From Candidatus Latescibacterota bacterium (GTDB taxonomy: Bacteria > Latescibacterota > UBA2968 > UBA8231), in contig CBDCDC010000002.1 in the NCBI GenBank assembly GCA_965215195.1, forward strand, positions 1,792,001-1,856,000: a stretch of DNA of 64,000 nucleotides, in the 5' to 3' direction. Within the stretch, counting starts at the first letter, position 1; the number at the start of each line of letters is the position of its first letter. The notes below the pieces were generated by a model. It saw only the letters and a list, made by a program, of their open reading frames with translations. It was not told where the DNA came from and made no database searches. Positions 11,811-40,199 of this stretch are shown in pieces. The position numbers were made by a program, and so were the translations under genes.

Positions 11811-11812
11811 AA

Positions 11813-11889: not shown

Positions 11890-11939
11890 ATAGCAAGCTG
11901 TAATGTAGTGTCATAAAATAGACGCGGCCCCCACCCTCG

Positions 11940-19994: not shown

Positions 19995-21950
<1,956 letters not shown>

Positions 21951-23488: not shown

Positions 23489-25453
23489 ATGGCCAATACC
23501 TTGCACTGCCTAAAGGCAGCGAGTACAGCTTTTGCCCGCGAGTGGCTGGAGACCAACGGCTTGGGCGGCTGGGCTTCCTCCACGGTTAGCGGCGCGCACA
23601 CCCGGCGCTACCACGGCCTGCTGGTCGTAGCGACCTGTCCGCCGGTCGGCCGGGTGGTGGTGCTCTCGCGGCTCGACGAGACCTTGGTCCTGCCCACAGC
23701 CCGCGTCGAGCTAGGTTGCAGCATCTTTCCCAGCACTATCCATCCACAAGGCCACCAACTCATTGCTTCCTTCGCGCTTGAGCCGGTGCCGACGTGGACG
23801 TACGCGGGGGACGGGTGGGTGTTGCGCAAGCGGCTCGCTCTGCTCTCGGGCGAGCACGCCTTGGTCGTCGCGTACGAACTGGTGAAGGCGCGTGGCCCGC
23901 TTTGTTTGGAATTGCGCCCCTTTTTCGCAGGTCGGGACTATCACCACTTGATGCAGGCTAACGATCGCGTCGCCCGCACCGCTGCTTGGACCGACGGTGT
24001 GCTAGCCTATCAACCCTACCCCGATCAGCCCACCGCCTACATCTACGTCGCCGACGCATCTTGGGAGGCCGCCCCGGACTGGTACTACAACTTTCAATAT
24101 CCACGCGAGGAAGAGCGCGGCCTCGACCACCGCGAGGACCTGTTCACACCCGGTCGTCTGCGCCTGCAACTCGACCCCGGGGCCACCGTTGGCGTGGTCG
24201 CGGCCACCGAGCTTCCCGCCGGCCGCGACCCCCTCGCGCTTCTCGCCGGCGAGATCGATCGCCGTCAGCAGGCGATGGTGTGCGCTCCTTGGGCGGCCGA
24301 CCCTTTGCTGCGGTCGCTGGCGCGGGCGGCCAATGCGTTTCTGGTACGGCGCGGCGATGGCCTGCACACCATTGTCGCCGGCTATCACTGGTTCACGGAT
24401 TGGGGCCGCGACACCATGATCGCCCTGCCCGGCCTCTGTTTGGTCACCGGGCGCTTTGCCGCGGCGCGGGGCATCTTCGCGGCGTTTGCCGAGCACGTCA
24501 GCGAGGGCATGATCCCCAACCGCTTCCCCGACGCGGGAGAGGCTCCAGAATATCACGCTGTTGACGCGACCTTGTGGTTTTTCGTCGCGCTCTACAAGTA
24601 TTTGCAATACACCCAAGACTACGAGTTTGCCCGCGCACTGTGGCCGACGCTAGAGGACATAGCCGCTTGGCACGAGCGCGGCACGCGCCATCAGATCCGG
24701 GCCGATGCCGACGGCCTGCTCGCGGCCGGCGAGCCCGGGGTGCAACTGACGTGGATGGACGCCAAGATCGGCGATTGGGTGGTCACGCCGCGCATGGGCA
24801 AGCCAGTGGAGGTCAATGCCCTTTGGTACAATGCGCTCAAAGTTTTGCAGCACTTGGCCGAGGCATTTGGTCAGCGCACCGAGTACGGCCAGCACGCCGC
24901 TGAAGTGCGCGCGTCCTTTGACCGCCTGTTCTGGTGCGAAGAGCGCGGCTATCTATGCGACGTGGTCGCGCCCGAGGGGCCGGATTGGGCAATCCGCCCC
25001 AACCAAGTTTTCGCGCTCTCGCTGCCCTTTCCGCTCATCGAGGGCGAGCGGGCGCGGCGAATTTTGTCCGTGCTTGACGAACACTTGCTGACCCCGCGCG
25101 GCCTGCGCAGCCTCTCGCCGAGCGACCCGGCGTACTGCGCCCGGTATGCGGGCGGCCCGTGGGAGCGCGACAGGGCGTATCACCAAGGCACGGTGTGGGC
25201 CTGGCTCATCGGCCCGTACATCACCGCCCTCTGCCGCTGCTACGGCCGCGCCGGCCGCCAGCGCGGCCGCGCCCTCCTCAACGGCTTTGCCGCGCACCTG
25301 TGCGAGGCGGGCTTGGGCACGGTTTCGGAGATATTTGACGCCGAGCCGCCTTTTGCTCCTCGCGGCTGCATCGCCCAGGCGTGGAGCGTGGGGGAGTTGT
25401 TGCGGGCTGGGGTGGAGGATGTGGGTGAATTGGAAATTAAGAACTGGAGTTGA
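23489..25453 (+). CDS. Glycogen debranching enzyme (amylo-alpha-1,6-glucosidase, archaeal/GH133 type)
   Basis: REWLETNGLGG, TRRYHGLL, AGYHWFTDWGRDTMI, LTWMDA, YHQGTVW, QAWSV. Confidence 0.93.
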   Translation: MANTLHCLKAASTAFAREWLETNGLGGWASSTVSGAHTRRYHGLLVVATCPPVGRVVVLSRLDETLVLPTARVELGCSIFPSTIHPQGHQLIASFALEPVPTWTYAGDGWVLRKRLALLSGEHALVVAYELVKARGPLCLELRPFFAGRDYHHLMQANDRVARTAAWTDGVLAYQPYPDQPTAYIYVADASWEAAPDWYYNFQYPREEERGLDHREDLFTPGRLRLQLDPGATVGVVAATELPAGRDPLALLAGEIDRRQQAMVCAPWAADPLLRSLARAANAFLVRRGDGLHTIVAGYHWFTDWGRDTMIALPGLCLVTGRFAAARGIFAAFAEHVSEGMIPNRFPDAGEAPEYHAVDATLWFFVALYKYLQYTQDYEFARALWPTLEDIAAWHERGTRHQIRADADGLLAAGEPGVQLTWMDAKIGDWVVTPRMGKPVEVNALWYNALKVLQHLAEAFGQRTEYGQHAAEVRASFDRLFWCEERGYLCDVVAPEGPDWAIRPNQVFALSLPFPLIEGERARRILSVLDEHLLTPRGLRSLSPSDPAYCARYAGGPWERDRAYHQGTVWAWLIGPYITALCRCYGRAGRQRGRALLNGFAAHLCEAGLGTVSEIFDAEPPFAPRGCIAQAWSVGELLRAGVEDVGELEIKNWS

Positions 25454-25509
25454 GGGGGCGCTGGGAGCAACTGACTGTATGAAGGGGGGGCCGGTACTTT
25501 TGCGATTAT

Positions 25510-26880
25510 TTGACATTACCCAGTAGCGATCTATCTTGTCTTGCCAAAATTACAAGCGACACCGGACCGGTCCGTTTTGAGCTTGTACGCGAGATTGAGA
25601 TAGGGTCTAACATAATGCAAGACTGGAATTGGCATAAGAACACTTGGATCTGTTCTAAGGAGGGCCGCGAGCATCATGCGCTCGCCAATTTTTGCGCCGT
25701 TTGCGGCGGTTCTGTCGCGAGCAAACCTGTCGATCTCATGGCCGATATACCTCCCGGAGAGAGTAAGGATAGCGCCGTCGAGAATTTGCCTGTCACTATG
25801 GACCACGTTGACGACCTCTTTAACGTGTTCGGCCAGCCCTTATTAGTGAGCAAACCCAGCGGAACAATGCACACCTACATAGAGAACGAGCCATGCGATC
25901 TGCCTCAGCTCAATGGGGCTTCCTTGCGTCAGGTGGATTTTGACCGCTGGTGGATTTACGCGATCACTGAGGTGGGGACGCTTCAAGTACTTCCGACCTC
26001 TGCATTGTTAAACGAAGATATGCTTCGAGGTGCTCAGTGGAAGCAGGTTGCCGTGGAATGTGGGCGCGTCGAGAAAATGGCCCTAGGTCGGAATCGGCTT
26101 TTCCTACTGGACCAAGAGGCATTGACTATTCATGTACATAAGGTAGATAAAGCAAGTTGCGCTCGATACTGGAAGAGCGAGAACCGCATCTTCGACGAAT
26201 TGCAAAAGCAAGAGCTAGACGAAAATTCGTTGCCTATCCAAGAAATGATCCCAATTCGGGGAAGCGATACCTATCTGGGCTTAATAGAAGAGGAAAACAG
26301 GATTGTTTTCTTAGATTTGGAACAGGGCAAGAACGTCTCGCATGAGGATGAGGATGCCCGCGGCGGCCCATTAGCCGCTTCGGCGGGCGTGATGCGCGGC
26401 GAGGATCCGTCAATATGGCTATTGACTCAAGAAGGGGGCTTGTGTGCCCTACAGTTAGTCGGCCAACAGGTGCTAAAAGAAATTCCGAGCCAAACCGCGG
26501 TAGAGGTACAGGCCCTACAGGCATTGCGGATCAAGTCCGGCTATTGCTATATGGCGATAGGGTCTAATTTTATGCTGTTGTTCGATCCATTGAGCCGGCA
26601 AGTTACGTCCACATTGGAGTGTAGTCCCGGATATTCCATGAGGCACATCGATCAGACCAAAGGCTTGGGCGGCTTGGTCGCCAACTTCCAAAGAGGAGTA
26701 AGAGCTAATACGGAATTTCGTCTTTCCCGTCTTGATGAACGGGGAGAGGGACATTTCTTGCGTGGCTGGCCTTTAGGCGAAGATCCGGTTGTGCCGCCAG
26801 CGGGTTTCGGCAAGTACGTGTACGTGATGACCCGCGATCATGAGTACCATCTATATCGCTATGACCTATTGGCCGTTTGA
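25510..26880 (+). CDS. Hypothetical protein, N-terminal zinc ribbon plus probable beta-propeller region
   Basis: WICSK...H...FCAVCG; short beta-strand-like repeats; start uncertain (TTG 25510 or ATG 25615). Confidence 0.6.
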   Translation: MTLPSSDLSCLAKITSDTGPVRFELVREIEIGSNIMQDWNWHKNTWICSKEGREHHALANFCAVCGGSVASKPVDLMADIPPGESKDSAVENLPVTMDHVDDLFNVFGQPLLVSKPSGTMHTYIENEPCDLPQLNGASLRQVDFDRWWIYAITEVGTLQVLPTSALLNEDMLRGAQWKQVAVECGRVEKMALGRNRLFLLDQEALTIHVHKVDKASCARYWKSENRIFDELQKQELDENSLPIQEMIPIRGSDTYLGLIEEENRIVFLDLEQGKNVSHEDEDARGGPLAASAGVMRGEDPSIWLLTQEGGLCALQLVGQQVLKEIPSQTAVEVQALQALRIKSGYCYMAIGSNFMLLFDPLSRQVTSTLECSPGYSMRHIDQTKGLGGLVANFQRGVRANTEFRLSRLDERGEGHFLRGWPLGEDPVVPPAGFGKYVYVMTRDHEYHLYRYDLLAV

Positions 26881-28468
26881 AAACCAGTCATTCTGGTACG
26901 TTGCTCTGCTCTGCTGCCTAGGGCTTGGCGGCCCTCGTGCCGCCGCTGGGATGGATGTCAGCATATTGGTCGATGGCTCTGGTTCAATGGAGGGCTTCCA
27001 GCAGACAGGCGAGCTACAGAAATTGCTGACCTCGTTAAAAAAAGTCTGCCAAGACCAGCAACTGGAGGCGGGTACTTTATTTTTTCTATCCCACCACCCG
27101 GATTCGCTAGTGTGGCTCGAGGAGACCCAAGGCGCACAATGGGGCAGCTATACTAATTTGCTCAGGGCTTTTGAAGAAAGGCTTGGATGGGCACCTATCA
27201 CTTTTCTTATTACCGATAATGTCCAAGCGACCACCAATGACGAGGATGTTCGGGGGCTCTATGCGCGTTTTGCCGAGGATGTGGTACAAGTACTATATGC
27301 CGTGCCGCTGAGTCTGCCCTTTGACGGGCGGTTGTTCAATCACCCCGACAAGATTTACCACCAGGGTCAGCGTGGGGCGGTCCTGTATGCCTATCTCACA
27401 GAAGAAGATCAGCGCGCTAGATTCGGCAAACTCATCTCCCAACTCAGGGCCGGCGGTTTGGAACCGATGCTGATGAAACCGCTAGACCACCGCATTGTTC
27501 TACATCGCAAACGCCGGACACCTTCGGATCAGCCGAGTGATATCGGCATGGACGAATACGAGTCGGTCAATTTCTCCTTTACCCTAGAGTCGCAATTGAG
27601 CTACCTGAATATCGAGCCGACGGATGAGTATGGTAATCCGGTGCGGTTAAAGGTGAGCCAGCCTAGGATCGTTCCCATGCAGCCCGAAGACCGGCGGTAC
27701 TGGAGTCGAGCCGGCGGGAGAGGGCGAGTTACTCCACCCCGCCTCGAAGAGAAGTTGGAGCACAATACCCAGAACAAATACCGCTATTCGTGCCGGGTCC
27801 GCCTAGGCCCGTTCCAGCCCAACGAGGTTGGCTTTTTCGACCAGCTTGGTATGGCGCGTATAAGCCCGATTCCAGTGCAATATATGTCCAAGGTCGTCTT
27901 GGAGATACCGCCTGGCTCGTTTCGCATGACTCCGATTTATCAGGAGAAGTACTTTACCGACAATCCCCAAGAGGTCGAGCGCATCTATACGCCAGACGAT
28001 CTGATACACTTCCTGCACCGAGACCGAAAGGGTTTGGAAGTGGTGCCCAAGGGAGGAGCCATAAGAGGTAGGTTGCAAGTCCGTTCCCCTCTCTATCTGT
28101 GGCGGGCTTGGGTCGCGGTGATCTTGCTACCCATCGCTGTGGTAGCTGCCGGGGGAATGGTTTATTTTAGGAGCCTCGTTTATCGGCTGGCAGACGTCGA
28201 GTACAAGTACTGGATGCGCCCCCGCGGTCAAAAGGAATTGGAGTACACAAACCAAAGCGGAAAGAATATCGTTTTGGGATATTTGCGGCGAGACGGCCTG
28301 TTCAAATGCAAATACCACTTATTGCCGGCCAAAGAGGGCGACGAAAGGGCTGAACTAAGAAATCGGATGGACGATCCGGTCGGTGAGGAGGGGGTGGCTT
28401 TTGCAAGGGATGAAAAATGGGTTTTCAACCACAAGGGCAATGAATTTGAACTGGAACGCCTCAAATAA
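26861..28468 (+). CDS. Membrane-anchored von Willebrand A domain protein
   Basis: Signal peptide, MIDAS DGSGS plus YTNL and LITD, late TM WVAVILLPIAVVAAGGMVYF, about 100-aa tail. Confidence 0.75.
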   Translation: MTYWPFENQSFWYVALLCCLGLGGPRAAAGMDVSILVDGSGSMEGFQQTGELQKLLTSLKKVCQDQQLEAGTLFFLSHHPDSLVWLEETQGAQWGSYTNLLRAFEERLGWAPITFLITDNVQATTNDEDVRGLYARFAEDVVQVLYAVPLSLPFDGRLFNHPDKIYHQGQRGAVLYAYLTEEDQRARFGKLISQLRAGGLEPMLMKPLDHRIVLHRKRRTPSDQPSDIGMDEYESVNFSFTLESQLSYLNIEPTDEYGNPVRLKVSQPRIVPMQPEDRRYWSRAGGRGRVTPPRLEEKLEHNTQNKYRYSCRVRLGPFQPNEVGFFDQLGMARISPIPVQYMSKVVLEIPPGSFRMTPIYQEKYFTDNPQEVERIYTPDDLIHFLHRDRKGLEVVPKGGAIRGRLQVRSPLYLWRAWVAVILLPIAVVAAGGMVYFRSLVYRLADVEYKYWMRPRGQKELEYTNQSGKNIVLGYLRRDGLFKCKYHLLPAKEGDERAELRNRMDDPVGEEGVAFARDEKWVFNHKGNEFELERLK

Positions 28469-28483
28469 CACTAGGGAGTCAAG

Positions 28484-29533
28484 ATGAAACGGCACATCGC
28501 GCTCGGATTCATACTGGCTATCGGCTGGATGGGGTGTGGCGGGCCGGAACAAAGCGGCTCCACGTTTACCCAGCAGATTGCCAAGGAAGAGAAGGCAAGC
28601 GTAGTATTCCTCAAGGTCTCTACCAATGAAGGAGACGGACTGGGGAGCGGAATCATCGTTAAGTCAACGGGCCAAATTCTCACGGCGCACCATGTGATCA
28701 AGGGCATCAAAGAAGGATGGGCCAAGCCGTTCAACGGGACTTGGATGCCGATTACGGGCGTTGTCGCCCAAGACGAACTCAAAGATCTGGCGGTGATAAA
28801 CGTCGATCCGCGCAACCAACACCTACAGCCGTCTAGGCTTGGGTCGGGAGAGTATATAAGTTCGGGCGATCCCGTGGTGGCCATAGGCAACCCGTTGGGG
28901 CTAGAGTACTCGGTCACCGAAGGGATTATCTCCGAGGTTCGCACCACCCCGGAGGGCCTCAGACTAATTCAGACGGATGCGGCCGTATCGCCGGGCAACA
29001 GCGGCGGGCCTTTATTCGACCAGAACGGCGAGGTAATTGGCGTGGTAAGTTTCAATCTAAGCTCTAGCCGCGACGAGGGGCAGAATCTCAATTTTGCGGT
29101 CTCAATTGATGAAGCTAAACCACTGCTGGGCATCCCCTCGGACCAATTTGAACCTGTTCGGGTGGGAGTCCCGCCACCGGAGACTAGCTCGCAGAGCTCC
29201 TTTCGCTATGTAGAGATTGGGCGCATAGTCTGGATTTTGGTGTTTTCTGTAATCGTCTATCTCTTTTCGGCCTACATACTCTTTAGCGGGCTCATCAAGA
29301 ACCGAGACAAGCACCCGGCCACGGCTTTTGGCATATCCGCCCTCGTATCGTGGGTGGGCTTTGCGGTGATCGCCTCCTTTGTGTTGAGTGGCCTTTTCGA
29401 TTTTTTAATGGGCTGGGTGTCAGGTTCGCAAATTGAATGGCGAGTCTGCATCGCTGGGCTGGTGTTCCTAATTCTCATCTTGGTGGTAGTAAGACTTGTC
29501 TCCCGGCCATCGGCCGTTAAAAGTTCAGAGTGA
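28484..29533 (+). CDS. Trypsin-like (S1C/HtrA-type) serine protease, no PDZ, three C-terminal TM helices
   Basis: TAHHVI, DLAVI, AIGNPLGL, QTDAAVSPGNSGGPL; lipobox-like WMGC. Confidence 0.9.
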   Translation: MKRHIALGFILAIGWMGCGGPEQSGSTFTQQIAKEEKASVVFLKVSTNEGDGLGSGIIVKSTGQILTAHHVIKGIKEGWAKPFNGTWMPITGVVAQDELKDLAVINVDPRNQHLQPSRLGSGEYISSGDPVVAIGNPLGLEYSVTEGIISEVRTTPEGLRLIQTDAAVSPGNSGGPLFDQNGEVIGVVSFNLSSSRDEGQNLNFAVSIDEAKPLLGIPSDQFEPVRVGVPPPETSSQSSFRYVEIGRIVWILVFSVIVYLFSAYILFSGLIKNRDKHPATAFGISALVSWVGFAVIASFVLSGLFDFLMGWVSGSQIEWRVCIAGLVFLILILVVVRLVSRPSAVKSSE

Positions 29534-29624
29534 GAGACACCCGCCGGATACTTCGACCTGAGCGCAGCCGAAGATTTTCAGGCCACATCTAATACCAGTT
29601 GAAGCAAAATTGAAAGAGAACACC

Positions 29625-32600
29625 ATGCCTAGGGTCGGTACTCTAACTCAAGCAGAAAAAGAAAACAGAACGATCGCTATCCGTCCCACACTTTTGATCG
29701 GCTTGGGAGGTACGGGAAAGGAAGTACTGCGGCGACTGCGACGGATGTTCTACGAGAAGTACAGAGTAGCGGGTTTACCCATCATGGAGTACCTATGGTT
29801 CGATACTGACATCCGCAATGAGTCCCTGAGCGGGGAGACACCTGACGAGTTGGACAGGCTCATTGACCTTGCCATTTCACAGAAGATTGATGGTCGGGTC
29901 CAGCCCGGGGAGTTAGCTGGATACCGGCGCAACAAGAATGCCTATCCGCATATATGGAACTGGTTGCCCCGCGAACTAGATGCGCTGCCCGACAACGCCA
30001 TCACGCAAGGGGCAGGGCAGATCCGTTCTTTTGGACGGTTGGCTTTCTTCCACCATTATGCAAGAATTCGCAACGCCATCAACACATTGGGGAGAAAGGT
30101 AACTGCCCAAGAGGCTTCCGAGGACATGAACCGCCGTTACCCTGATTATACGGTAGATAATAGTACCTTGGAGATCATTACCGTGTCTTCTCTCGGTGGT
30201 GGAACGGGGTCCGGCTGCTTTATTGACGTCGGATTTCTATGTCGATCTTTGTTCCCAGCTTCTACGCGCACGGCTTTTCTGACCATGCCCACGGTTTTCG
30301 ACGGGGTGGTGGGTCCCACAGGGGTAGAGGCCGTCCATGCCAACGGCTTTGCCGCGCTCAAGGAACTCGAGTACTTCATGCAGCCCCGGTTTAGCGCCAC
30401 CACAGATGAGGATACAAGCGAGTACTCTCCTCACGAATTTAATTGGGATGGAACCCCACAGCAGGTGGAAGCACCGCCTTTTTCTACGGTCTATATGCTC
30501 GACAAGGAGAATATTGACGAATTCACCGATACATTCCAGATGATCGCTGAGTTTCTGCTGCTGGATTTCGACAAGACCGGATTCGCCGCTCAAAAGCGCA
30601 GCGTACGTTCCAATATGGAGCAGTACCTACAGGATATGGCCACCTTCCGCAGTGGAAACGATGGAAGCTATGTCCAGTATTTTCCATGCCGGTATGCATC
30701 TTTTGGGCTCTCCCAGATTGAATTGAATCAGCCTCGTCTGGCCAATGCGGCTGCCAACCGCTGCGCTCAGTATCTGGTAGAACTCATCATAGCCAAGGAT
30801 AACAGAATCCCTCAGGGCTTTGATGATGCCGATGTCAAACCCCGCATGGAGCAGATGGGCCTTACTAAGGAACTCTTTTTGCAACGCTGCTTGGTCAAGC
30901 CGGGCAAGGATTTCACCTTGATTGACGAGGTTGTCAACGAGTTGATCGAACCGGCTTTCAATAAATTGCAGGACGATCTGTACACGGCACCAGCGGTAGA
31001 GGATCAAAAGGTTTTGGATCGCCAAGTGGAACAAACGCGGCAGCAGGTGGGTGAATTGGTCCGCCAAGTGCGGGAACGAGTAGGGGAAAGACTGTTACAG
31101 CAAGGCACCCAAAAGGGCGATGGTGTGACGCAGATTTTGGAAAATATCGGCGCGAACCGTCCCATGCTCGAAAAGCGAGTAGAGGATGAATGTCTGAAAT
31201 TACTGTGCGACCCCTTGGAGTTCGGCCCTAAATTCATGGTTGAGTGGCTGAAGATCACCGTCCCTGTACTGGAGCGAATCAAAGAGGAATTGCAGGCCAT
31301 AGAGAATCGGCACATAGAAGCACCAGAGGCTCCGCCAATCAAAATCGAATTTTCCGACGAGTATAATAAATACGAAGCTCTCCTACGAGCGGCTAGGCAG
31401 GAGATGCCCTTTGCCTTCTTAACGAAACGCATTGCTATCAACCATTACGAAGAACGCAAACGGAGGTCCTTTGATCAGAATGCCCAACTCATCACTCGTG
31501 ATCTGGTGCAGCAGGTAGAGGCCGTCAGAGATCAACTCAAGCAATGGGTCACCGCTCGCTACAAGCAGGAGGCGGCCCGTCGGCTGCTCAATCCCAATTC
31601 CGGAAGACATGAGCAGGAAAAGGGCCTGATTGACAACATAATCGGCTTTGTCGGCCAACAGACCGAAGTCCGGGGTGCAGATGGCGAACTCCATGTGCAA
31701 CTCAGTGGTTTGCTGGCCAAGGTGGAGAAATTTCAAGAGCATCTTCAAGAGATGGCTGACCGCTTCGAGGGTTTCTATCGTTCTTATAGCAACCGAATGC
31801 CTAGTGTGCGCAATCTCGATCTCATGCCTGAACTTAACTATCGCGAGGAAATTGAGACATATCTGCGCGACAAAAAAAGACGGACAGGTGCCGGTTTCAA
31901 TGAAGTTTTACAAGGTGTTCTGGAGGCCTATTTTCGCTCGGAAGAAGCCCGGCCGCTATTTGCTGAGTACGCTACTCGCGAAGGAAGCGCGATCGATGCC
32001 ATACGCGATTGTACTCGCATTATCTTCAATCGATCTGCGAATAGGGACAATACCCCTCGTGATTGGAGAGAGGTAGAGAAGTCATTGAGTGAGTTCGCGT
32101 TTGGCCTATTTAAGGAGTTCTATGATGACAGAAACGCCGTTCAAGAGGTGCAAAACCAGAACTATAATGAGGGAGATGAGATACAAAAAAGATCAAGGCT
32201 AGCCAAACCACGGATGTCTGAGGCAACACCACGTTTACCGGGTATGGATCCTCACATCCAGAAAACAATAGGACTTCCTCCAGGTGAAAACAGATGGAAA
32301 ACGCTAATCGAACAAAACGTTCGAGACCCTCAAGTGGCGCACCACGCCCCTGATTCGGTTATATTTGTCAGCCAATGGATGGCCTTTCCCCTATTCGCTA
32401 TCGACAATTTGAGGCAACTGCACGCAGCATACGAAAACAACCTTCTTAGAATGCCGCAAAATGTATACCGTCGCTACACGACCAAGGACTATATCAAATA
32501 TCCGGAGGTCCTACCGCCTAAAGACGACGACGAAGCGCAAATGCTAGTGGATGCCCTACAACCGCTCATTGGTGGTATCCTACTCGGGGTAGTGGCTTAT

Positions 32601-33071
32601 GACAAACGACGATTCTACCGAACTTACCGAGCACAGGGCCGAAGGCGCGAGGAGTATTACGGACTTAATCTCGAGGACGCACGCCGGACTTTGGCCCGAG
32701 ACCAGATCATACGAGATAGACTGCGCCAAGAGGTACAAAACATTCAGGATAACTGGCGATTGAATGGCAATAACCTCGCTTTTGAGCAGTACTTGGCCCT
32801 CCAAAGACATTTAGTGGAGCATGTATATCCAGATACCAGAGTTGTGATACGCGGCCAGAGTGAGGATGTGGACGTATTCCACAGCTTGCTTAGCGAGGCT
32901 TTCGGCGAGAGTTTCAATAAGGAGCGGCAGCACTTGGACATCAGCGAAGAAGAATTGGACGGCCGTATCTACGAACACTTGCAGGACAAAGATCGTTTTG
33001 CCAAACCCCTAGACTACCGCGATCCTCACTGCAAAGACGATATATATGTGATGGATGGTGCCAATGCCTAG
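29625..33071 (+). CDS. Tubulin/FtsZ-like GTPase (Tubulin_2/FtsZl type) with long helical C-terminal region
   Basis: IGLGGTG, FDTD, GAGQIRSFGR, SLGGGTGSG, ANGFAALKEL. Confidence 0.9.
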   Translation: MPRVGTLTQAEKENRTIAIRPTLLIGLGGTGKEVLRRLRRMFYEKYRVAGLPIMEYLWFDTDIRNESLSGETPDELDRLIDLAISQKIDGRVQPGELAGYRRNKNAYPHIWNWLPRELDALPDNAITQGAGQIRSFGRLAFFHHYARIRNAINTLGRKVTAQEASEDMNRRYPDYTVDNSTLEIITVSSLGGGTGSGCFIDVGFLCRSLFPASTRTAFLTMPTVFDGVVGPTGVEAVHANGFAALKELEYFMQPRFSATTDEDTSEYSPHEFNWDGTPQQVEAPPFSTVYMLDKENIDEFTDTFQMIAEFLLLDFDKTGFAAQKRSVRSNMEQYLQDMATFRSGNDGSYVQYFPCRYASFGLSQIELNQPRLANAAANRCAQYLVELIIAKDNRIPQGFDDADVKPRMEQMGLTKELFLQRCLVKPGKDFTLIDEVVNELIEPAFNKLQDDLYTAPAVEDQKVLDRQVEQTRQQVGELVRQVRERVGERLLQQGTQKGDGVTQILENIGANRPMLEKRVEDECLKLLCDPLEFGPKFMVEWLKITVPVLERIKEELQAIENRHIEAPEAPPIKIEFSDEYNKYEALLRAARQEMPFAFLTKRIAINHYEERKRRSFDQNAQLITRDLVQQVEAVRDQLKQWVTARYKQEAARRLLNPNSGRHEQEKGLIDNIIGFVGQQTEVRGADGELHVQLSGLLAKVEKFQEHLQEMADRFEGFYRSYSNRMPSVRNLDLMPELNYREEIETYLRDKKRRTGAGFNEVLQGVLEAYFRSEEARPLFAEYATREGSAIDAIRDCTRIIFNRSANRDNTPRDWREVEKSLSEFAFGLFKEFYDDRNAVQEVQNQNYNEGDEIQKRSRLAKPRMSEATPRLPGMDPHIQKTIGLPPGENRWKTLIEQNVRDPQVAHHAPDSVIFVSQWMAFPLFAIDNLRQLHAAYENNLLRMPQNVYRRYTTKDYIKYPEVLPPKDDDEAQMLVDALQPLIGGILLGVVAYDKRRFYRTYRAQGRRREEYYGLNLEDARRTLARDQIIRDRLRQEVQNIQDNWRLNGNNLAFEQYLALQRHLVEHVYPDTRVVIRGQSEDVDVFHSLLSEAFGESFNKERQHLDISEEELDGRIYEHLQDKDRFAKPLDYRDPHCKDDIYVMDGANA

Positions 33072-36000
33072 GGAAGCGAGTCAAGAGCGGGTCGATAAGG
33101 CGATAGGTGCTTGCCCTGTTTGTCAGTGGCCTTATGGGAGCGGAAGCATCTTTTGCAGCAGTTGCGGGATTCAACTCGTCCGTCTAGAGGTATTTCCCAA
33201 GCCCAATGAGCTATTGACCCTCTTCGAAGGTTATCCAGTCATCATGCGGTTCGAGAATACCGGGAAAATACCCGTGGAACTGGAACGTCTCGACGGAGTG
33301 GAGTGGGGAGAATGGGTTTCGGAAACGAATTGGCCCGCCTCCTTGGATCCAAAGGAAAAAATAGAAATACGCCGGCTGCATACCGAGCGTCGCGGCCAAC
33401 GAGGGCGGTTGACTCTGCACCCCACGCTGTTGCCGATTTCATTTCGTTACCGGGTCCAAAAGGCTCCCCGAATCTGGCTGACTGACGAGCAGGGGCGAGA
33501 GTTTGAACAAGGCACTGACGGCGCACAGTTGTGGGCGGTAAATCGGGAAGCCCAATGGCACTATCTAGCCCTTCACACCACAAGCGAAGTGATTTTGGCA
33601 AAGCCTCCCCGTCTGTTCAAGGGAGATCAGATGGTGGATATAGTGCCGGCGGAAGAGGTAAGCTATCCCTTCCGCTTGGATCCAGATAAAGCCTTTCCGG
33701 TAAGACTCACCCAAAATCAGCCTCTGCCTGAAGAAGGGCATCCTGTACATCTCGTTTTTCCCATCCAGAACATAGGTGATGTCGATTTTCATCTCAATCT
33801 AAAGTACACTCTTCGGCCGGTGCTCAGAGTGGAGTTTAAGCCGCGGGGTTTCACCGGTGACACGGCACTTATCAGCGGAAGCCGAAAACAGAAGAATGTA
33901 AGTGCTACCATTACGCACTTACGGGGCGCACCACTACGCATAAATGCCGTGACTAGCGATACGTCTTGGCTACAGATCGTTGACAGCAAGGAGACCCCGG
34001 TCGTCCTTAACCCTCAGAATTCAACGGCGGGAGCTGATGAGGAGAGTGTGCTAAATATCCAGTTGCAAATGAAGACTGTTGATATTCCTCGGGTAACAGA
34101 ATCAAAGCACTTTGAACCCAAGATCGTCGTCAAGGGAGAGGCTATAGGAGCGGAAGATTCGGCGTTCGAAAAGGGGTATTCGCTTCCTGTCGGAGTAGTT
34201 CCTCCCAAACCGTTAGATCATCCTATTGGCATCGATTTTGGGACGACCAACTCTTGCTTGGCCTATTATGTTGTTGAAGATGAAGAAACAATGCCTCGCT
34301 TGGCAGAATTCGAGAGCAATGATCCTCGTGCCGAAGTGCCGACTGTCTTTCAGCTTAGAGCAATTAGGAAGAGAGCCGAACGTCTGGAAATTCTCGGAAC
34401 TCTGGAGGCTGACGAGCATCATTTGGTGGCGACCGAGAACGAGGAAGCTATTATGAGCTTTGGACGTAAGCCATTCGACCAGGTCGCCGGGATCAATCGG
34501 GACAACTTCGACGGCAATGATATCTGGAATTCTATGAGCAGTATCTGCTGGAATTTCAAATACGCTCTCAACCGACCCTATGATCCAAATATCTATATTG
34601 ATACCGGGATGTCGGGTATTTTGATCAATGGGCATCGCCCTAATACGCGGAATATCAGTCTGACTCCGGTGGATCAAGTAGCTATTTACCTCCGGTTTAT
34701 GGTAGAACGCTTCATTGAAGAATCCGGGTATTTGCCCAAAGAGATCTTTCTGACTTATCCGGCGGTATTCAACCGCCAAAAACAGGCCCTACAGGACGCC
34801 GCCGAAAAGGCTTTGCAGGAGCGCGACATTGAGACCCGCCTAGAGATCAGTGAACCTGAAGCTATCGCGGTGTATTATGTATGGCAGCTTATGGTTAGGG
34901 CCAATAAAGATAATATGGAAGAGGAGCCTGCCGATAAAGATGATGTGGATGAACGGATCATTGGGGTGTTCGACTGCGGCGGGGGGACGACCGATATCTC
35001 CATCGTACGCTATACTATGGGGGATGGTGAATATCAAATGAATCAAGTGGAAATTCTCGGTTCTGATGGTGACAATCGACTAGGGGGGAACCTACTGACA
35101 TTTTGCTTGGCTAAATACTTCTATGGGGAACTCGTCCCTGAACAGTATCGTAGTCGTTTTCCCTTTCCCAAGGATCTACGCGATGGCTTACGCACTCAAG
35201 AGGCTAGTGTGAAAACGAACTTCCTAAAGCTCTACCAGTTAGCCGAGATGATAAAGACGAACAGCACAACTTATGAGCGATTCCAAGGATGTTTTTCCCC
35301 ACAGCGCTATGAGGAACTGAACCAGATAAGGGATGTGGGATTGCTGGACCTGCTCGCCAGTGGGGAGAAACTGAATTGGCCTAGCATTGAGTTAGCCAGC
35401 CTCGAAGAGAGCGATGTATTCCGGGTCAATGGCTTGAAGCGCAGCATCAACAACGGCGACTTGCCAAGGCAACTTAGCTCTATGGATTATCAGGCTATTT
35501 TTTCTGTGCTTCGCCGAGAATTGGAGCGGGGTTTCAAGAAACTGGACTTGATGCAGAAGGAGCTTTACAAGCGGAAAATTATATCCAATTTCCAGTTGGA
35601 TCATCTTATTTTGGCAGGCAATTCGTCCAAATTGCCGATTGTGAATGAGATCGCTCAAGGTATGGAAACCAAAGAAGTTTCGGCCCCTGCTCTTTCTTCA
35701 CCGGATTTTAATAATGAACGAAAGGTTAGCGTAGCCGCGGGAGCGGCTCTTTACGGAAGGTCTCTACTGGAAGATCAAGAATCCCCCCTCGAAGTCTCTG
35801 GAATACACAAACTAAATTATCCGCTAGGTTCCTACAATACGATGAGAGGCTTCAGGCCCATTTTTGATCGCTGGCTTTCCCTAGAGAAGGGAAAAGTACA
35901 TTCCCGTGCGAGCAAAATTATCTCCAAGCGTCAATCCCGCACTCGACGAATCTTACTGTTCGAATTTTTCGGTTGGAACTACAAAAACCTGAAGGCAGAC

Positions 36001-36210
36001 CGGCAGCAAGTGGCAGCTATTCCCATGCCACTGGAGGAGCGGTCTTTTAAGCAGGCCGCTTATTGGCAGTACAAACTCGAGCTTCGGGGCGACGAAAACA
36101 ATCGCGGTCAGCTCTATTACAACTTCGCGGTAGGACAGGAGAAGGATGGAAGTGATTTTGAAGAAATCTATGATGGATACTTGAAATGCGAGGACTTTAA
36201 CTATAGTTGA
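33064..36210 (+). CDS. Atypical Hsp70-family ATPase with N-terminal zinc ribbon and beta-rich (Ig-like) domains
   Basis: CPVC...FCSSCG; GIDFGTTNS, TYPAVF, ISEPEAIA, VFDCGGGTTDIS, GDNRLGG, LAGNSSKLP, VAAGAA. Confidence 0.85.
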   Translation: MPREASQERVDKAIGACPVCQWPYGSGSIFCSSCGIQLVRLEVFPKPNELLTLFEGYPVIMRFENTGKIPVELERLDGVEWGEWVSETNWPASLDPKEKIEIRRLHTERRGQRGRLTLHPTLLPISFRYRVQKAPRIWLTDEQGREFEQGTDGAQLWAVNREAQWHYLALHTTSEVILAKPPRLFKGDQMVDIVPAEEVSYPFRLDPDKAFPVRLTQNQPLPEEGHPVHLVFPIQNIGDVDFHLNLKYTLRPVLRVEFKPRGFTGDTALISGSRKQKNVSATITHLRGAPLRINAVTSDTSWLQIVDSKETPVVLNPQNSTAGADEESVLNIQLQMKTVDIPRVTESKHFEPKIVVKGEAIGAEDSAFEKGYSLPVGVVPPKPLDHPIGIDFGTTNSCLAYYVVEDEETMPRLAEFESNDPRAEVPTVFQLRAIRKRAERLEILGTLEADEHHLVATENEEAIMSFGRKPFDQVAGINRDNFDGNDIWNSMSSICWNFKYALNRPYDPNIYIDTGMSGILINGHRPNTRNISLTPVDQVAIYLRFMVERFIEESGYLPKEIFLTYPAVFNRQKQALQDAAEKALQERDIETRLEISEPEAIAVYYVWQLMVRANKDNMEEEPADKDDVDERIIGVFDCGGGTTDISIVRYTMGDGEYQMNQVEILGSDGDNRLGGNLLTFCLAKYFYGELVPEQYRSRFPFPKDLRDGLRTQEASVKTNFLKLYQLAEMIKTNSTTYERFQGCFSPQRYEELNQIRDVGLLDLLASGEKLNWPSIELASLEESDVFRVNGLKRSINNGDLPRQLSSMDYQAIFSVLRRELERGFKKLDLMQKELYKRKIISNFQLDHLILAGNSSKLPIVNEIAQGMETKEVSAPALSSPDFNNERKVSVAAGAALYGRSLLEDQESPLEVSGIHKLNYPLGSYNTMRGFRPIFDRWLSLEKGKVHSRASKIISKRQSRTRRILLFEFFGWNYKNLKADRQQVAAIPMPLEERSFKQAAYWQYKLELRGDENNRGQLYYNFAVGQEKDGSDFEEIYDGYLKCEDFNYS

Positions 36211-36234
36211 GTGTAAAGCCAGCAAAAGATATTT

Positions 36235-37167
36235 ATGGCAGAATTCCAAGAAAAGGTTGATGCTCTAGGCAACGAAGTTGCCCTCTGGGAGAAAGAACTC
36301 CAAGCTCTGCGAGAAATCGTCGACAAGACAAGACAGATCCGAGAAGAATTACACAAACGCGGTCTCGGCGACCTCGTATTCGCGCAGATCCTCGATGTAG
36401 CCAAGGGTTTCGATGGGGCGGAAGAGAGCTTTGTAGAAAAGGTGAACGAGTTCTTAAACGATATGAACAACTTCAGAGACAAGTTGGCAAAGTTCCGCGA
36501 CATTATGCAAGCGTCCTACGATGACTACGCAGAGCTCCGTCAATTCATCCCTACTAACACCAAATTTCAAGAGCTACAAAAGCTAGAGCTCGATCTGCAA
36601 AATAGATTAAAATCATTCCAAGAAGAAGTACAGGCTGCCTCCGAAAAATGGAATAAAAAATATTCAGATATTACAAATACCCGATATCGTTTCCGAGAAA
36701 TGCTCAACGAACTGCCCCTAGAAGTCGAAGAGATACCGTCGACACAGGATGCTGAGACTATTAACAAGGACATCGAAAAGATCAAGGAGGCCGTGAATGG
36801 GTTGGAGTTGGTCTCCCTTATAGCGAAGGAATCGGATCTCAAAGATCAATTGACGACTATCCAAGCTAAGATAGACAATTTCTGTATTCCGTGGGATACT
36901 GTCCTGACTAATTTAATTGACCAGTTGTTCAAAGAGAAAAAATCTCTAGAACAGAAACCCGCGAAATTGGAAAGATTTGTCCAAGAACGCGGCCTTGAGT
37001 TGATTTGGCCGGAGCAAGGGGACGAACACTCGCTAGCATATCACCGAATTTTAGATGAGCGAGAAGATGATCAGGTAAGCCGCGGTCAAGTGATTCGACC
37101 TGTTACACCTGGACTACGCCGGGGGGCTGAAGTAATTATCAAGGCCGGGATTTGGCTGGCGAAATGA
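36235..37167 (+). CDS. Coiled-coil protein with C-terminal GrpE-like head
   Basis: Heptad-rich for about 250 aa, then GLELIWPEQGDEHSLAYH...GQVIRPVTPGLRRGAEVIIKAGIWL; follows the Hsp70 gene. Confidence 0.7.
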   Translation: MAEFQEKVDALGNEVALWEKELQALREIVDKTRQIREELHKRGLGDLVFAQILDVAKGFDGAEESFVEKVNEFLNDMNNFRDKLAKFRDIMQASYDDYAELRQFIPTNTKFQELQKLELDLQNRLKSFQEEVQAASEKWNKKYSDITNTRYRFREMLNELPLEVEEIPSTQDAETINKDIEKIKEAVNGLELVSLIAKESDLKDQLTTIQAKIDNFCIPWDTVLTNLIDQLFKEKKSLEQKPAKLERFVQERGLELIWPEQGDEHSLAYHRILDEREDDQVSRGQVIRPVTPGLRRGAEVIIKAGIWLAK

Positions 37168-37241
37168 GCAAAATCTTCTCTTACGGTAGAGTGTCTGTCC
37201 TATAACTGAGCATTGCAGCTACAGCAGAGAAAGCCATTTCC

Positions 37242-39026
37242 ATGAGTTTAGACTTCTTAGCCCAGAACAGCGATCAGATTCGGGACTTTTTTGTTTTTCT
37301 TATCATCTTGTTCGGCCTAGCTGCGCTTGTCCTATTTGTCAAAGGGTACAGAAGAACGCAGACATATCGCCTCGGATTGGGTGCTATTGAGAGCTGGGAG
37401 AGAGACAATCCAGATTTCAATATAGAAGAGGAGACCGACCAATCCCCCGAAGATGTTATTAAGGAAGCCAAGCATCCCTTGGCTGTCCGTTGGCTCGAAC
37501 GTTTTATAGCCTTATATCGGCAAAATAAGGCTCCTGATGTAGAAGGTTTGATAGGCTCTATCGAACACGAACTCACCCGGCACGACGAAGCATTCCGCTC
37601 GCTTACCAGCAGCCTCATTCTATTGGGCCTACTAGGCACATTTGTTGGATTAATAATCGTGGTCATACCTATCCCGGGTATTATCCAAGGAGCGCAGACT
37701 TCACCAACATTGAGTCAAGAAGTAAAAATAGAGGATGTATTTAGTACCATCCTAGAAGGGTTGGGGCAGTCAGTAAAAGGGATGCCACTGGCGTTCATTA
37801 CCAGTATAATAGGGCTTTTCGCCACCTTAATCCTAAATGGCTTATACAGCCTTCTATTACTACGCACTAGGAATACGTTGTTGGCAAACATAGAAGAGTG
37901 TTTCAACGCGAAAATCGCCCCTAGGTTTGCTATAATCCCGCCGCAGTTACGTTTGAGCCGCGTCTTCACCCGAACAGTAAACGACCTATACGATAAGTAC
38001 TTCACTACTCTTTCCGACTACTTAGACAAAAGACTCAAGGAAATTGTCGATGTTTACGATAATTATTTCCTTCTCTTTTCTGGCCATTTAGACAAAAGAC
38101 TCAAGGAAATCGTCGATAGTAACGCTCGCTTGGCCACACTTGTAGAAGAGAGCGGCACGAAGCTCAAGGAAAGTAGCGAGGCCAGTCTGAAAAGCGCGGA
38201 GATTTTTGAGCAGCACAAGGAGACGGTAGCTGCGGGGGCAAACGAAATAATGAGAGCGGCTAAGGAGTTTTCTCAACACATCAAGAACTTTGAGCGGCTA
38301 AGCGACCCCCTGAATGCGCTCAAGGACAGCGTCGATACTATGCTCGAGGAGAACAAGCGACTGATGGCCCGACAGTTTCAATCCTTTGATGAGCGGATGG
38401 ACAAACAATCCAAGTTATTTGAGGCGCGAATGGAGACCCTAGGAGACGGCCTAGCCGAGACTCTGGAGACGATAAGAGGATTGAATGACACAGATTATCG
38501 TCCCAATTTCGTGAACATCCAGAACCTGCTCACCGCTGTCAGGGAGAGCCAAGATGCCTTCCTCGAATTTCAGAAGAAGACGCTCAACGAGCAAGGTGAA
38601 GCGTTTGAAAAGGCCAAGCAACCCCTACAAGATGAATTGGAAAGGCTCCGCCAAGATCTGCAAAGATTGGGCAAGGAGCAAGGCGAGGCGTTTGAACAGG
38701 CCAAAAAGCCCTTACAGGATGAATCGGAAAGGTTGCGCCAAGAGCTACAAGGGTTGAACAAGGAGATAGTATTGTTGCAGAACCAGCTAGGCCAAGTGCT
38801 AGGAGCCATCAATCAAGGTTTCAAAAAAACGGACGAGGACCTCCAAGTACTGAAAGCTATCGATCAGGTAATCCCTCAGCTTGAAGACATGCATGCGACG
38901 GCGCAGGCAATAGAAAAACAGTTGGATGGCATGGCGAAATCGCCGCAAGGCATCGCCGGACGATCTCGAAGAAAATGGAATTGGAATAGTATTCGCCGAT
39001 TATTCAAGAAAAAGAGCAAGGAATAG
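37242..39026 (+). CDS. ZorA-like MotA/TolQ/ExbB channel protein with long coiled-coil tail
   Basis: Three TMs, LGLLGTFVGL and GMPLAFITSIIG, about 380-aa helical tail. Confidence 0.85.
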   Translation: MSLDFLAQNSDQIRDFFVFLIILFGLAALVLFVKGYRRTQTYRLGLGAIESWERDNPDFNIEEETDQSPEDVIKEAKHPLAVRWLERFIALYRQNKAPDVEGLIGSIEHELTRHDEAFRSLTSSLILLGLLGTFVGLIIVVIPIPGIIQGAQTSPTLSQEVKIEDVFSTILEGLGQSVKGMPLAFITSIIGLFATLILNGLYSLLLLRTRNTLLANIEECFNAKIAPRFAIIPPQLRLSRVFTRTVNDLYDKYFTTLSDYLDKRLKEIVDVYDNYFLLFSGHLDKRLKEIVDSNARLATLVEESGTKLKESSEASLKSAEIFEQHKETVAAGANEIMRAAKEFSQHIKNFERLSDPLNALKDSVDTMLEENKRLMARQFQSFDERMDKQSKLFEARMETLGDGLAETLETIRGLNDTDYRPNFVNIQNLLTAVRESQDAFLEFQKKTLNEQGEAFEKAKQPLQDELERLRQDLQRLGKEQGEAFEQAKKPLQDESERLRQELQGLNKEIVLLQNQLGQVLGAINQGFKKTDEDLQVLKAIDQVIPQLEDMHATAQAIEKQLDGMAKSPQGIAGRSRRKWNWNSIRRLFKKKSKE

Positions 39027-39065
39027 TCAGGCCCATCGGCTGAATGCTTGGGAAAGCAGCCTCGG

Positions 39066-39722
39066 ATGAAAAGGGATCGCAGTAGCCATAGTGGGCTCAA
39101 TTTCTGGCCTTCTTTCACGGACGCAATCACGGCTATTTTCATTTGCGTCACTTTTTTTCTCGTCGTGATGGTGATCAAGAATTACGTGGACCTGAGCCGC
39201 TTGCGTGCGCTGAAAGAACTGGTGGGTAAGATAGAGAAGGATCTCGACGAGTTAGAAGAATTCATGGGAGGAGAGGACGTCACCGTAGAAGAAGGTACGA
39301 TTGTAATGCGTAGTGATATCCTGTTCTCTTTTGATGAATCCGCTCTTGATGATATTCCCGTCGAAGGGCAAAATCAGCTCAGGCGAATAGGTCAAAAATT
39401 AAAGCAGTTTATTGAAAAAAAAGACAGTAAATTGTTCAGTATTGTGGTAGAGGGCCACACCGACAGTTACGGCGAGAGGGAATACAACCGCATTTTATCC
39501 CTGAAACGATCTCAAACTGTGGTGGACTATTGGGAGCAGGTCGACTTCACTTGGGAAAATTTCGATATCGTCCCGGTTGGCTTAGGCGAGCGGGAGCTGG
39601 TTGTTTTAACCGGAACAAAGGATGAACAGTCCCCTAACCGACGTATCGTGATCCGATTGGTGCCTAAATTTAGCCAACTAATCCAGAGCCTGAAGGAGCA
39701 GAACATCCTACTGAGGGATTAG
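39066..39722 (+). CDS. ZorB/MotB-like protein with OmpA-like peptidoglycan-binding domain
   Basis: FWPSFTD TM with conserved Asp; DILFSFD, VEGHTD, NRILSLKRS, NRRIVI. Confidence 0.88.
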   Translation: MKRDRSSHSGLNFWPSFTDAITAIFICVTFFLVVMVIKNYVDLSRLRALKELVGKIEKDLDELEEFMGGEDVTVEEGTIVMRSDILFSFDESALDDIPVEGQNQLRRIGQKLKQFIEKKDSKLFSIVVEGHTDSYGEREYNRILSLKRSQTVVDYWEQVDFTWENFDIVPVGLGERELVVLTGTKDEQSPNRRIVIRLVPKFSQLIQSLKEQNILLRD

Positions 39723-39965
39723 CAGTGCTCTGTCATAAGTGCTAGCTAAACTGCTCTTGGAACGGCGCACGGCCTTCCATTAGCGTTAGAGGCTGTCCTA
39801 ACGCCCAGCGGCAAAATTATCCGCCGCTGAACGCCGATGCGGAAGGACGCCCACTTCCGCGCCGACTCTCACCCCGATCTAGCTGTTGCGGGATCGAGAA
39901 GTAGCGGGCGACGTGGACTGTGCACTCTTGACAGATTCCAACGCAGCCCTTTTAATAGCCCAAGC

Positions 39966-40160
39966 AAATAACGGCGCAGGTGTCCGCTGTTAGACGCAGC
40001 GGAAGAATAGGGAAGGCAGTGCAAATCTGCCGCGGTCCCGCCACTGTGATCGGTTGACGGCCCACCGGCCGTCGCGTCCCCGACATCAGCCACTGATCCC
40101 CACGTGGATCGGGAAGGAGTCGGGCGGCACATAACCGGAAGTCAGGAGACCTGCCTGCGC
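39966..40160 (+). promoter_or_regulatory. Cobalamin riboswitch
   Basis: GCGCAGGTG...AATAGGGAAGGCAGTGCAAATCTGCCGCGGTCCCGCCACTGTGA...GCCACTG...GGGAAGG...AAGTCAGGAGACCTGCCTGCGC (B12 box), upstream of btu genes. Confidence 0.93.
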
Positions 40161-40199
40161 TGAGGTGAAGACTCCTTCGGCAGAAAGGTTGGTCCACCG

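Follow-up and report, generated by a model that had tools for sequence, protein, structure and literature searches.

The stretch of DNA analysed here (the window) is 64,000 nucleotides (nt) long and comes from a Candidatus Latescibacterota bacterium (contig CBDCDC010000002.1, positions 1,792,001 to 1,856,000 of the forward strand); all coordinates below are positions in the window. A low-GC island of 14.5 kb, at 25424-39921, consists of eight plus-strand open reading frames (ORFs), designated g1 to g8, and short flanks. Its last two genes encode a pair of proteins resembling ZorA and ZorB of the Zorya anti-phage systems, and the six preceding ones include genes for a tubulin-like GTPase of the FtsZl1 type and for an Hsp70-like protein with a GrpE-like partner. 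This eight-gene system is real, conserved and mobile. It bridges two known kinds of system, the Zorya-type motor and the FtsZl1 operons, and matches no Zorya type. The features, each with its strand and the evidence used to assign it, are as follows.

25424..39921, no strand: whole island, gained or lost as a block (five of five congeneric empty sites, joins in DNA runs, GC content)
25615..26880, plus: g1, cytoplasmic protein of 421 amino acids (aa), Zn-ribbon-like Cys motif and seven- or eight-bladed beta-propeller (motif, model)
26840..28468, plus: g2, signal peptide, periplasmic vWA-like domain with a metal-ion-dependent adhesion site (MIDAS), beta-rich middle, transmembrane (TM) segment and cytoplasmic tail (motif, TM scan)
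28484..29533, plus: g3, signal- or lipoprotein-like N-terminus (Cys18), HtrA-type serine protease and C-terminal module of three to four TM segments (Pfam, motifs, TM scan)
29610..33071, plus: g4, FtsZl1-type tubulin-like GTPase with a long helical C-terminal extension (Pfam, motif)
33055..36210, plus: g5, Zn-ribbon, about 340 aa, Hsp70-type nucleotide-binding domain (NBD) and a non-DnaK C-terminal domain (Pfam, motifs)
36235..37167, plus: g6, long helical protein with a GrpE-like C-terminal beta-domain (AlphaFold2 (AF2) and Foldseek)
37242..39026, plus: g7, ZorA-like subunit of the MotA/ExbB family, three TM helices and a helical tail of about 385 aa (PADLOC, PDB profile)
39048..39722, plus: g8, ZorB-like, one TM helix with Asp25 and an OmpA-type peptidoglycan-binding domain (PADLOC, Pfam)
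25510..25537, plus: promoter-like site TTGACA-16-TATCTT upstream of g1 (consensus scan, 10/12 matches)

The genes are tightly spaced. g1 and g2 overlap by 41 nt and g4 and g5 by 17 nt, and the remaining gaps are 15 nt (g2-g3), 76 nt (g3-g4), 24 nt (g5-g6), 74 nt (g6-g7) and 21 nt (g7-g8). An original prediction, made from the letters of the window alone, had described eight co-oriented, close-packed genes that were more AT-rich than their surroundings. The genes lie as it placed them, except that g1 had been started at the TTG at 25510. That triplet belongs to the -35 hexamer of the promoter-like site, and the start of g1 is the ATG at 25615, which is used in the orthologues and in the database copy (421 aa). 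The difference in composition is clear: the GC content is 0.502 within the island compared to 0.624 and 0.627 in the adjoining 10-kb stretches. g2, g3, g4, g5, g7 and g8 all retain their active-site motifs.

Recurrence of the gene set

The proposal that these genes form one system was supported by a search of gene neighbourhoods. In four Latescibacterota genomes the same eight genes were found in the same order and between the same flanks, with 68-96% identity (4/4 close loci). Two genomes from another family of the same class have the same gene order between other flanks, at 25-50% identity (2/2 loci); the g6 counterpart in that family was recognised by its position and by similarity at the C-terminus. 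A distant profile of the Zn-ribbon Hsp70 (ZnR-Hsp70) protein was then used to fetch metagenome loci (n = 72), and 12 of them contained the ZnR-Hsp70 subfamily. In 10 of these 12, genes for a g2-like protein, a membrane protein of about 150 aa, a Tubulin_2 protein and the ZnR-Hsp70 are consecutive, at approximately 20% identity, while one of the remaining two is cut upstream and the other is a 2.9-kb contig. ZorA-like and/or ZorB-like genes occur within 5 kb downstream in 10 of the 11 loci having downstream sequence, where they come after two to four further genes and stand last. The distant ZorA-like proteins pass the Pfam MotA_ExbB cut-off, and the distant ZorB-like proteins match OmpA (4e-17). 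The intervening proteins have a C-terminal domain that can be aligned with the C-terminus of g6 (hhalign probability 43-81%), and one of them gives a near-full-length, sub-threshold match to GrpE. Upstream, a Zn-ribbon protein of about 420 aa aligns weakly with g1 (hhalign probability 77%). The other 60 loci contain different Hsp70-like genes and none of the partners.

The core of the system is a vWA-TM protein, a 4-TM protein, a Tubulin_2 protein, a ZnR-Hsp70, a GrpE-like C-terminal domain and the ZorA/ZorB-like pair. In Latescibacterota the set additionally includes a beta-propeller protein with a Zn-ribbon. One core-bearing contig (L017, 169 kb) encodes a GMP synthase identical to a Candidatus Cloacimonadaceae protein, and the core is therefore present in a second phylum. 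One metagenome locus (L018, 3073-11764) has vWA-like, Tubulin_2 and Hsp70-like genes and no ZorA/B-like gene in the 9 kb downstream, where large opposite-strand genes are found instead; it may be a motor-less variant.

Distribution and mobility

Tubulin_2 was found in 8 of 21 related genomes, including 5 of 12 congeners. The g2 family is present in 16 of 168 genomes and 4 of 49 genera of the phylum, and in 7 of 30 congeners. It is a small family: of 1.84 billion representatives, 330 belong to it at E <= 1e-3 and 212 at 1e-10. Of ten of its representatives, a taxon was attached to one cluster name alone, Candidatus Sericytochromatia. In all five complete congeneric genomes lacking the island, the two flanks lie 20-280 bp apart. 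The same empty form was seen in DNA runs X5 and X6, which contain contigs joining 25423 to 39927/39922 beside the island-bearing form. The GC content of the cassette was below that of its flanks in 5 of 5 contexts measured.

Divergence differs between the parts. Among close relatives the mean pairwise identity is 0.88-0.93 for the periplasmic and membrane proteins g2, g3 and g8 and 0.71-0.75 for the cytoplasmic parts; the flanking genes of these relatives are 84-89% identical to those of the window. A hypervariable 'sensor' domain was sought among the five close orthologues and none was found, the divergence being spread out.

Viral contigs contained no relative of g2. They gave generic Hsp70-domain matches to g5 at 74 loci, 34 of which match the g5 profile and none of which match the other seven profiles. 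A tblastn search of plasmids with g5 returned ordinary DnaK-type matches, with none of 89 records covering 80% or more. The corresponding search with g4 gave nine records, and the two that were examined, from Nostoc and Azospirillum, are without Hsp70 or ZorA-like genes. In Nostoc punctiforme pNPUN01 an FtsZl1 gene and a gene for a small vWA protein lie among CHAT, caspase and S8 peptidase genes, and in Azospirillum sp. TSA2s p2 the same two lie among caspase, OmpA, DUF4384 and PEGA genes. Both are apparently other, conflict-type contexts of FtsZl1 tubulins.

Two metatranscriptome libraries from one study yielded contigs from a relative of about 93% identity, and these may include DNA. They bridge g1-g2-g3 (26306-28717) and g3-g4 (29292-32424 and 28717-29652) and partly cover g7 and g8. 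The region at about 32.7-37.8 kb is left uncovered, which was taken as evidence of nothing. These contigs agree, weakly, with co-transcription of the cassette.

The ZorA/ZorB-like motor pair

The domain assignments of the original prediction stood for most of the genes, namely a Zn-ribbon and propeller in g1, a tubulin-like protein in g4, a Zn-ribbon and Hsp70 in g5 and ZorA- and ZorB-like proteins in g7 and g8. Three others stood with a qualification. g2, read as a TM-vWA protein, has the TM segment and an invariant MIDAS motif and lacks a Pfam vWA match at threshold; g3, read as a TM-trypsin protein, has both elements, with the protease apparently no part of the core; and g6, read as GrpE-like, falls below the Pfam cut-off and is supported by its fold.

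The TM helices of g7 span residues 11-38, 120-153 and 178-208, and the motifs LGLLGT133F and AFxTS188 are invariant. Its best PADLOC match is ZorA3 (7.5e-12). The best PDB match of the g7-family profile is Shewanella type I ZorA (8vvn_C, 1.6e-7), and E. coli ZorA and ExbB give 1.4e-3 and 1.5e-3, respectively. For g8 the best PADLOC match is ZorB1 (2e-21), Pfam finds OmpA (6e-12), and residues 7-159, from the TM helix onward, align with E. coli ZorB (8qyd_F, 3.5e-6). The peptidoglycan-binding motif of g8 is Y146-N147-L150-R154 (Y-N-x2-L-x3-R). Of the solved structures, those of ZorAB are closer to this pair than those of ExbB/TolQ or MotAB.

The g7 tail has about 385 aa, compared to about 500 aa in the tail of E. 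coli ZorA. Published systems are cited here from the available portions of each paper, and for Zorya these give a ZorA tail of 70 nm and name Asp26 and Y151/N152/L155/R159 in ZorB, and Thr147/Ser184 and the tail in ZorA (PMC11946911). The residues of g7 and g8 were compared with these as described motifs, without a one-to-one alignment. Within the g7 tail, two stretches, each of about 20-30 residues, are duplicated in tandem, at residues 255-300 and 455-510 approximately. The length of the tail varies among close relatives because the duplications are absent from one orthologue (locus L003, 543 aa compared to 594 aa).

The tubulin-like GTPase and the Hsp70/GrpE-like pair

Tubulin_2 (PF13809) matches g4 at 1.6e-64 over residues 28-390, covering model positions 1-355 of 356, and the loop GGGTGSG is found at residues 196-202.

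g5 begins with a Zn-ribbon whose four cysteines (C20, C23, C34, C37) are invariant in 13 sequences, 7-8 of which also give weak Zn-ribbon matches. Apart from one weak FN3 match in one of the 13, Pfam found nothing but the Zn-ribbon in these N-terminal regions, where the original prediction had put a putative Ig domain behind the Zn-ribbon, and an Atlas search with the N-terminal part gave only a weak Zn-ribbon lead (0.77). HSP70 (PF00012) is matched at 2.6e-11 (42.9 bits, cut-off 20.6) over model positions 118-238 of 599. The motifs of the NBD are invariant in 17 sequences: DFGTTN at 394, DCGGGTTD at 640-647 and L853/G855/N856 (LAGNSS). Matches to the DnaK and HscA models of NCBIfam are at 1e-12 to 1e-10, with at most 46 bits against cut-offs above 600, and no DnaK-type substrate-binding domain or lid was recognised in the Pfam and NCBIfam scans.

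The g6 protein is GrpE-like by its predicted fold alone, not by sequence. Pfam GrpE (PF01025) scores 22.9 bits (7.4e-5), below the cut-off of 25.8. In the AF2 model, residues 250-310 have a predicted local distance difference test (pLDDT) score of 76-89, and the first ten matches in a Foldseek search of the PDB are all GrpE chains (1dkg_A, 6.6e-5). A complex prediction for the g5 NBD with two C-terminal halves of g6 gave a score of 0.08 (mark 0.32) and was used neither way.

The pair shares with DnaK and GrpE the nucleotide-binding motifs of Hsp70 (g5) and, by prediction, the GrpE-like fold (g6), and differs in the Zn-ribbon and some 340 extra N-terminal residues of g5 and in the far longer helical N-terminal part of g6. 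The genome encodes its housekeeping DnaK (921 bits) and GrpE (151 bits) at other sites; g5 and g6 are therefore extra copies, a pair reserved for this system.

The same genome encodes a further chaperone module that is not of the housekeeping type, about 750 kb from the window (locus L081, contig 2, 1030000-1049900; minus strand, 7656-12542). It comprises an Hsp70-vWA fusion of 711 aa (HSP70 6.6e-132, VWA 3e-26), a GrpE-like protein of 366 aa (1.4e-11) and an Hsp70 NBD-only protein of 531 aa. Next come two proteins to which no family was assigned and two with Sel1 repeats. The module is similar to the HSP70-GrpE theme described in the available text of Kaur et al. 2020 (PMC7159879).

The propeller, vWA-like and protease proteins

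The Cys motif of g1 is C-x13-C-x2-C, with C14, C28 and C31 invariant in 15 sequences. Its AF2 model (pLDDT 78, predicted template modelling score 0.83) is matched in the PDB, at E-values down to 5.5e-11, chiefly by the WD40 propellers Fbw7, Cdc4 and Utp21 and also by BamB. Scans of Pfam, NCBIfam and PADLOC assigned no family to g1, and a TM scan found no TM segment.

An alignment of 13 sequences of the g2 family, with identities as low as 17%, has D45, S47, S49, T105, T125 and D126 as invariant columns. They make up DxSxS...T...TD, the MIDAS pattern of vWA domains, and follow a signal-like N-terminus. One TM segment at about 416-447 precedes a cytoplasmic tail of about 95 aa. An Atlas search with g2 leads to clusters bearing VWA_2 (score 0.83). 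When a profile of the family was compared with PDB sequences, the only match was a weak one, with an entry called simply 'conserved protein' (8s05_A, 0.0046), and it was of no use. From its motif, g2 likely carries a vWA domain.

The protease part of g3 matches Trypsin_2 (Pfam, 1.2e-29) and has the triad H69/70, D101 and S173. As in HtrA, DegP and DegS, there is a signal peptide, a trypsin-fold domain and a His-Asp-Ser triad. Unlike those proteins, g3 has no PDZ domain that could be found, and the C-terminal module of three to four TM segments stands in its place; the NCBIfam degP_htrA_DO model is matched over the protease part only (141 bits, cut-off 416). This TM module weakly matches the membrane protein of about 150 aa in the distant loci (hmmsearch 5e-3, hhalign probability 42%). 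The protease domain is absent from all 10 distant loci, which have the membrane module alone at that position. Judged by these comparisons, the protease appears to be a Latescibacterota-specific fusion onto a small membrane protein, outside the core.

Relation to known systems

With Zorya types I-III the system shares a subunit of the MotA/ExbB family whose three TM helices are accompanied by a long, helical tail in the cytoplasm (g7), and an Asp-bearing partner with one TM helix, an OmpA-type domain and the motif Y-N-x2-L-x3-R (g8). No match to ZorC, ZorD, ZorE, ZorF or ZorG was found in g1-g6 (PADLOC, E <= 0.01); the partners here are a tubulin-like GTPase, an Hsp70/GrpE pair and a vWA-like protein, with no nuclease detected. 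Here the ZorA/B-like genes close the series of eight, whereas the orders given for Zorya are zorABCD, zorABE and zorGABF (PMC11946911), with the motor genes starting in first or second place.

Makarova and Koonin 2010 (PMC2875224) described FtsZl1-vWA-OmpA operons and proposed for them a role in membrane remodelling or vesicle biogenesis. According to the available text, these operons share with the island the N-terminal tubulin-like domain, coiled coil and helical C-terminus of g4, a vWA-type MIDAS protein with TM or signal segments (g2, by motif), lineage-specific membrane proteins and, in several genomes, a peptidoglycan-binding protein of the OmpA family (g8). A diverged P-loop GTPase and Ser/Thr protein kinases are given in that text as partners that are frequent though not universal; scans of the eight proteins and of distant-locus proteins detected none of them. 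Conversely, its main text mentions no Hsp70, GrpE or MotA-like partner. The families A1-A2 and B1-B9 defined in its additional files may already include some of the present genes unnamed.

The original prediction recognised no described system that joins these modules. No named system matches, and full-text literature searches found no prior description of the combined system. The link between FtsZl1, vWA and OmpA proteins has been known since 2010, and the present system therefore extends a known predicted system and is not wholly new.

Proposed function

Three parts of the system face the periplasm (the vWA-like domain, the protease and the peptidoglycan-binding domain) and five are cytoplasmic. 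The island probably encodes a single machine that spans the envelope, and its genes are passed on and lost together. If it works as Zorya does (PMC11946911, available text), phage entry or another attack would disturb the envelope, and the vWA protein and/or the ZorB-like dimer, bound to peptidoglycan, would sense this on the periplasmic side; the ZorA-like pentamer, driven by protons, would turn, and its tail would relay the signal to the cytoplasm. Judging from the partners encoded here, that signal could trigger or position the GTP-dependent assembly of the tubulin-like protein, and a private Hsp70/GrpE cycle could load, remodel or dismantle the assembly, with the propeller and the Zn-ribbons as putative adaptors. 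The result would be an assembly of proteins at the membrane, serving for sealing, sequestration, division arrest or membrane remodelling, and in this lineage periplasmic proteolysis may be an additional output. The output is not expected to be DNA cleavage because no nuclease domain was detected.

We consider a role in conflict or defence the most likely purpose of the system, at roughly even chances. In its favour are the patchy gain and loss of the whole block, the AT bias and the faster change of the cytoplasmic parts. Like parts also occur in predicted conflict systems, which include tubulin, TM-vWA and HSP70-GrpE modules (Kaur et al. 2020, PMC7159879, available text), and FtsZl1 is found amid CHAT/caspase genes on two plasmids.

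A number of observations weigh against this role or against the assignments on which it depends. No toxin or nuclease effector was detected in the eight proteins with Pfam or PADLOC. The flanks are housekeeping genes in five of the six other sampled loci (NamZ, ABC transporter, GMP synthase and HflX-like GTPase), as they are in the window; there is therefore no sign of a defence island, and with such neighbours a defence function is no more than plausible. The NCBIfam cut-offs for Zorya are far from reached (ZorA 16.9 bits against 500, ZorB 34.7 against 400), and PADLOC has no model for g1, g2, g4 or g5. A Pfam scan of 13 members of the g2 family gave no vWA match at threshold and a sub-threshold one in three. 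The AF2 model of g6 has a low mean pLDDT of 59, and the g6-family profile compared with PDB sequences returned coiled-coil noise and no GrpE. Finally, a contig from an RNA library is not a transcript.

The strongest competitor, which we regard as possible and clearly less probable than a role in conflict, is an envelope machine without immune function that remodels membranes, makes vesicles, moves or anchors adhesins, or applies force across the envelope. Membrane remodelling and vesicle biogenesis are the roles already suggested for the FtsZl1-vWA-OmpA operons, and vWA proteins tethered to the inner membrane beside 5:2 (TolQR-like) motors have been proposed as force transducers (PMC12204202, available text). 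The housekeeping flanks at most loci examined and the lack of a toxin or nuclease would suit such a machine, as would the higher conservation of g2, g3 and g8, which is expected if they bind the cell's own structures. Its occurrence would not be expected to be so patchy (16/168 genomes; 5/12 or 7/30 congeners) with clean empty sites, nor its cassette to be AT-biased in 5/5 contexts. In addition, the motor pair is closer to ZorAB than to ExbB/TolQ or MotAB, and g2, with its TM segment near the C-terminus, does not have the layout given in PMC12204202 for vWA force transducers, with an N-terminal TM/SHLS or a trans-pore helix. A module for envelope protein quality control or stress, in which the protease and the Hsp70/GrpE pair handle damaged proteins of the envelope or membrane and the motor supplies energy across the membrane, we judge unlikely. 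The HtrA-type protease has an intact triad, the Hsp70-like ATPase has a GrpE-like partner and several parts are located in the envelope; but none of the 10 distant loci encodes the protease domain, g5 has no recognisable DnaK substrate-binding domain, the tubulin-like GTPase is left without a role, and the system is patchy and mobile.

Two further explanations concern what the gene set is. It could be a reduced or divergent form of the DO-GTPase/GAP1-N2 conflict systems of Kaur et al. 2020, which in the available text share with it a tubulin with a C-terminal helical extension, a TM protein bearing an external vWA domain, HSP70 with GrpE, N-terminal Zn-ribbons and a predicted membrane-proximal assembly as output. 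Against this kinship, no P-loop GTPase, GAP1 or FNIII family was found in the eight proteins or in 10 proteins of distant loci with Pfam and NCBIfam, searches which very divergent forms could escape. The tubulin and HSP70 themes do not overlap in the available text (PMC7159879), which mentions no MotA, ExbB or Zorya partner, whereas here they are combined in one operon with a ZorAB-like motor. Those systems are mainly from Actinobacteria and Firmicutes, and the present one is from Latescibacterota and Cloacimonadota. We regard such a relationship as quite improbable. A chance juxtaposition of unrelated genes would account for the set only if the same order had been kept by accident in two families of Latescibacterota and on a contig from Cloacimonadaceae, at identities of 20-50%, and gained or lost as one block. 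Nothing was found in favour of this explanation, which is scarcely credible.

A more specific form of the conflict role may be put forward tentatively, as a possibility and not as our expectation. The system could be a fourth Zorya-type immunity, in which a ZorAB-like motor, driven by protons and primed by a vWA receptor in the periplasm, signals a breach of the envelope to the cytoplasm, the effector, in place of a nuclease, is a GTP-dependent polymer of the tubulin-like protein that Hsp70/GrpE assembles and recycles, and the whole has spread horizontally across phyla of the FCB (Fibrobacteres-Chlorobi-Bacteroidetes) group.

To our knowledge, Zorya is the only system in immunity with a motor of the flagellar-stator type, and all three of its types end in DNA-targeting effectors. 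We also know of no function assigned since 2010 to the FtsZl1 branch of the tubulin superfamily. An operon coupling a ZorAB-like motor, FtsZl1 and Hsp70/GrpE provides a testable object for both the targets of the ZorA tail and the purpose of the FtsZl1 polymer. If the role is in defence, membrane protein assembly or remodelling would be a new effector logic, and if the fourth Zorya type is real it would be a cytoskeleton- and chaperone-based innate immune response of bacteria. If the role is not in defence, the system would be a new envelope-spanning machine of motor and cytoskeleton. Either way, the ZorAB-like pair would broaden the known uses of 5:2 motors.

Edges and neighbouring genes

The promoter-like site upstream of g1 is weak evidence of a promoter, as the consensus scan found 16 such sites in the region with 12.9 expected. 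At the ends of the island there was no sign of an integrase, a tRNA or a long flanking repeat, and a microhomology of four bases was noted by eye. The left neighbour is a glycogen-debranching-like gene. The left edge (25424-25453) lies about 30 nt inside its 3' end, and because of this the last 10 or so codons of the gene differ with and without the island.

The sole Rfam match at the island is a cobalamin riboswitch (RF00174, 114 bits) on the plus strand at 39961-40172, directly downstream. It is followed by the gene for a TonB-dependent receptor, an ORF of 754 aa at 40200-42464, which the original prediction had called a btu/TonB-dependent receptor gene. In the island-free genomes the riboswitch region comes directly behind the debranching-like gene. 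Among the sampled flanks the sole possibly conflict-related neighbourhood is in locus L007, where genes for a microbial PARG-like protein and a cytidylyltransferase/AAA_28 (NadR-like) protein stand directly downstream of the system, at 18126-20120.

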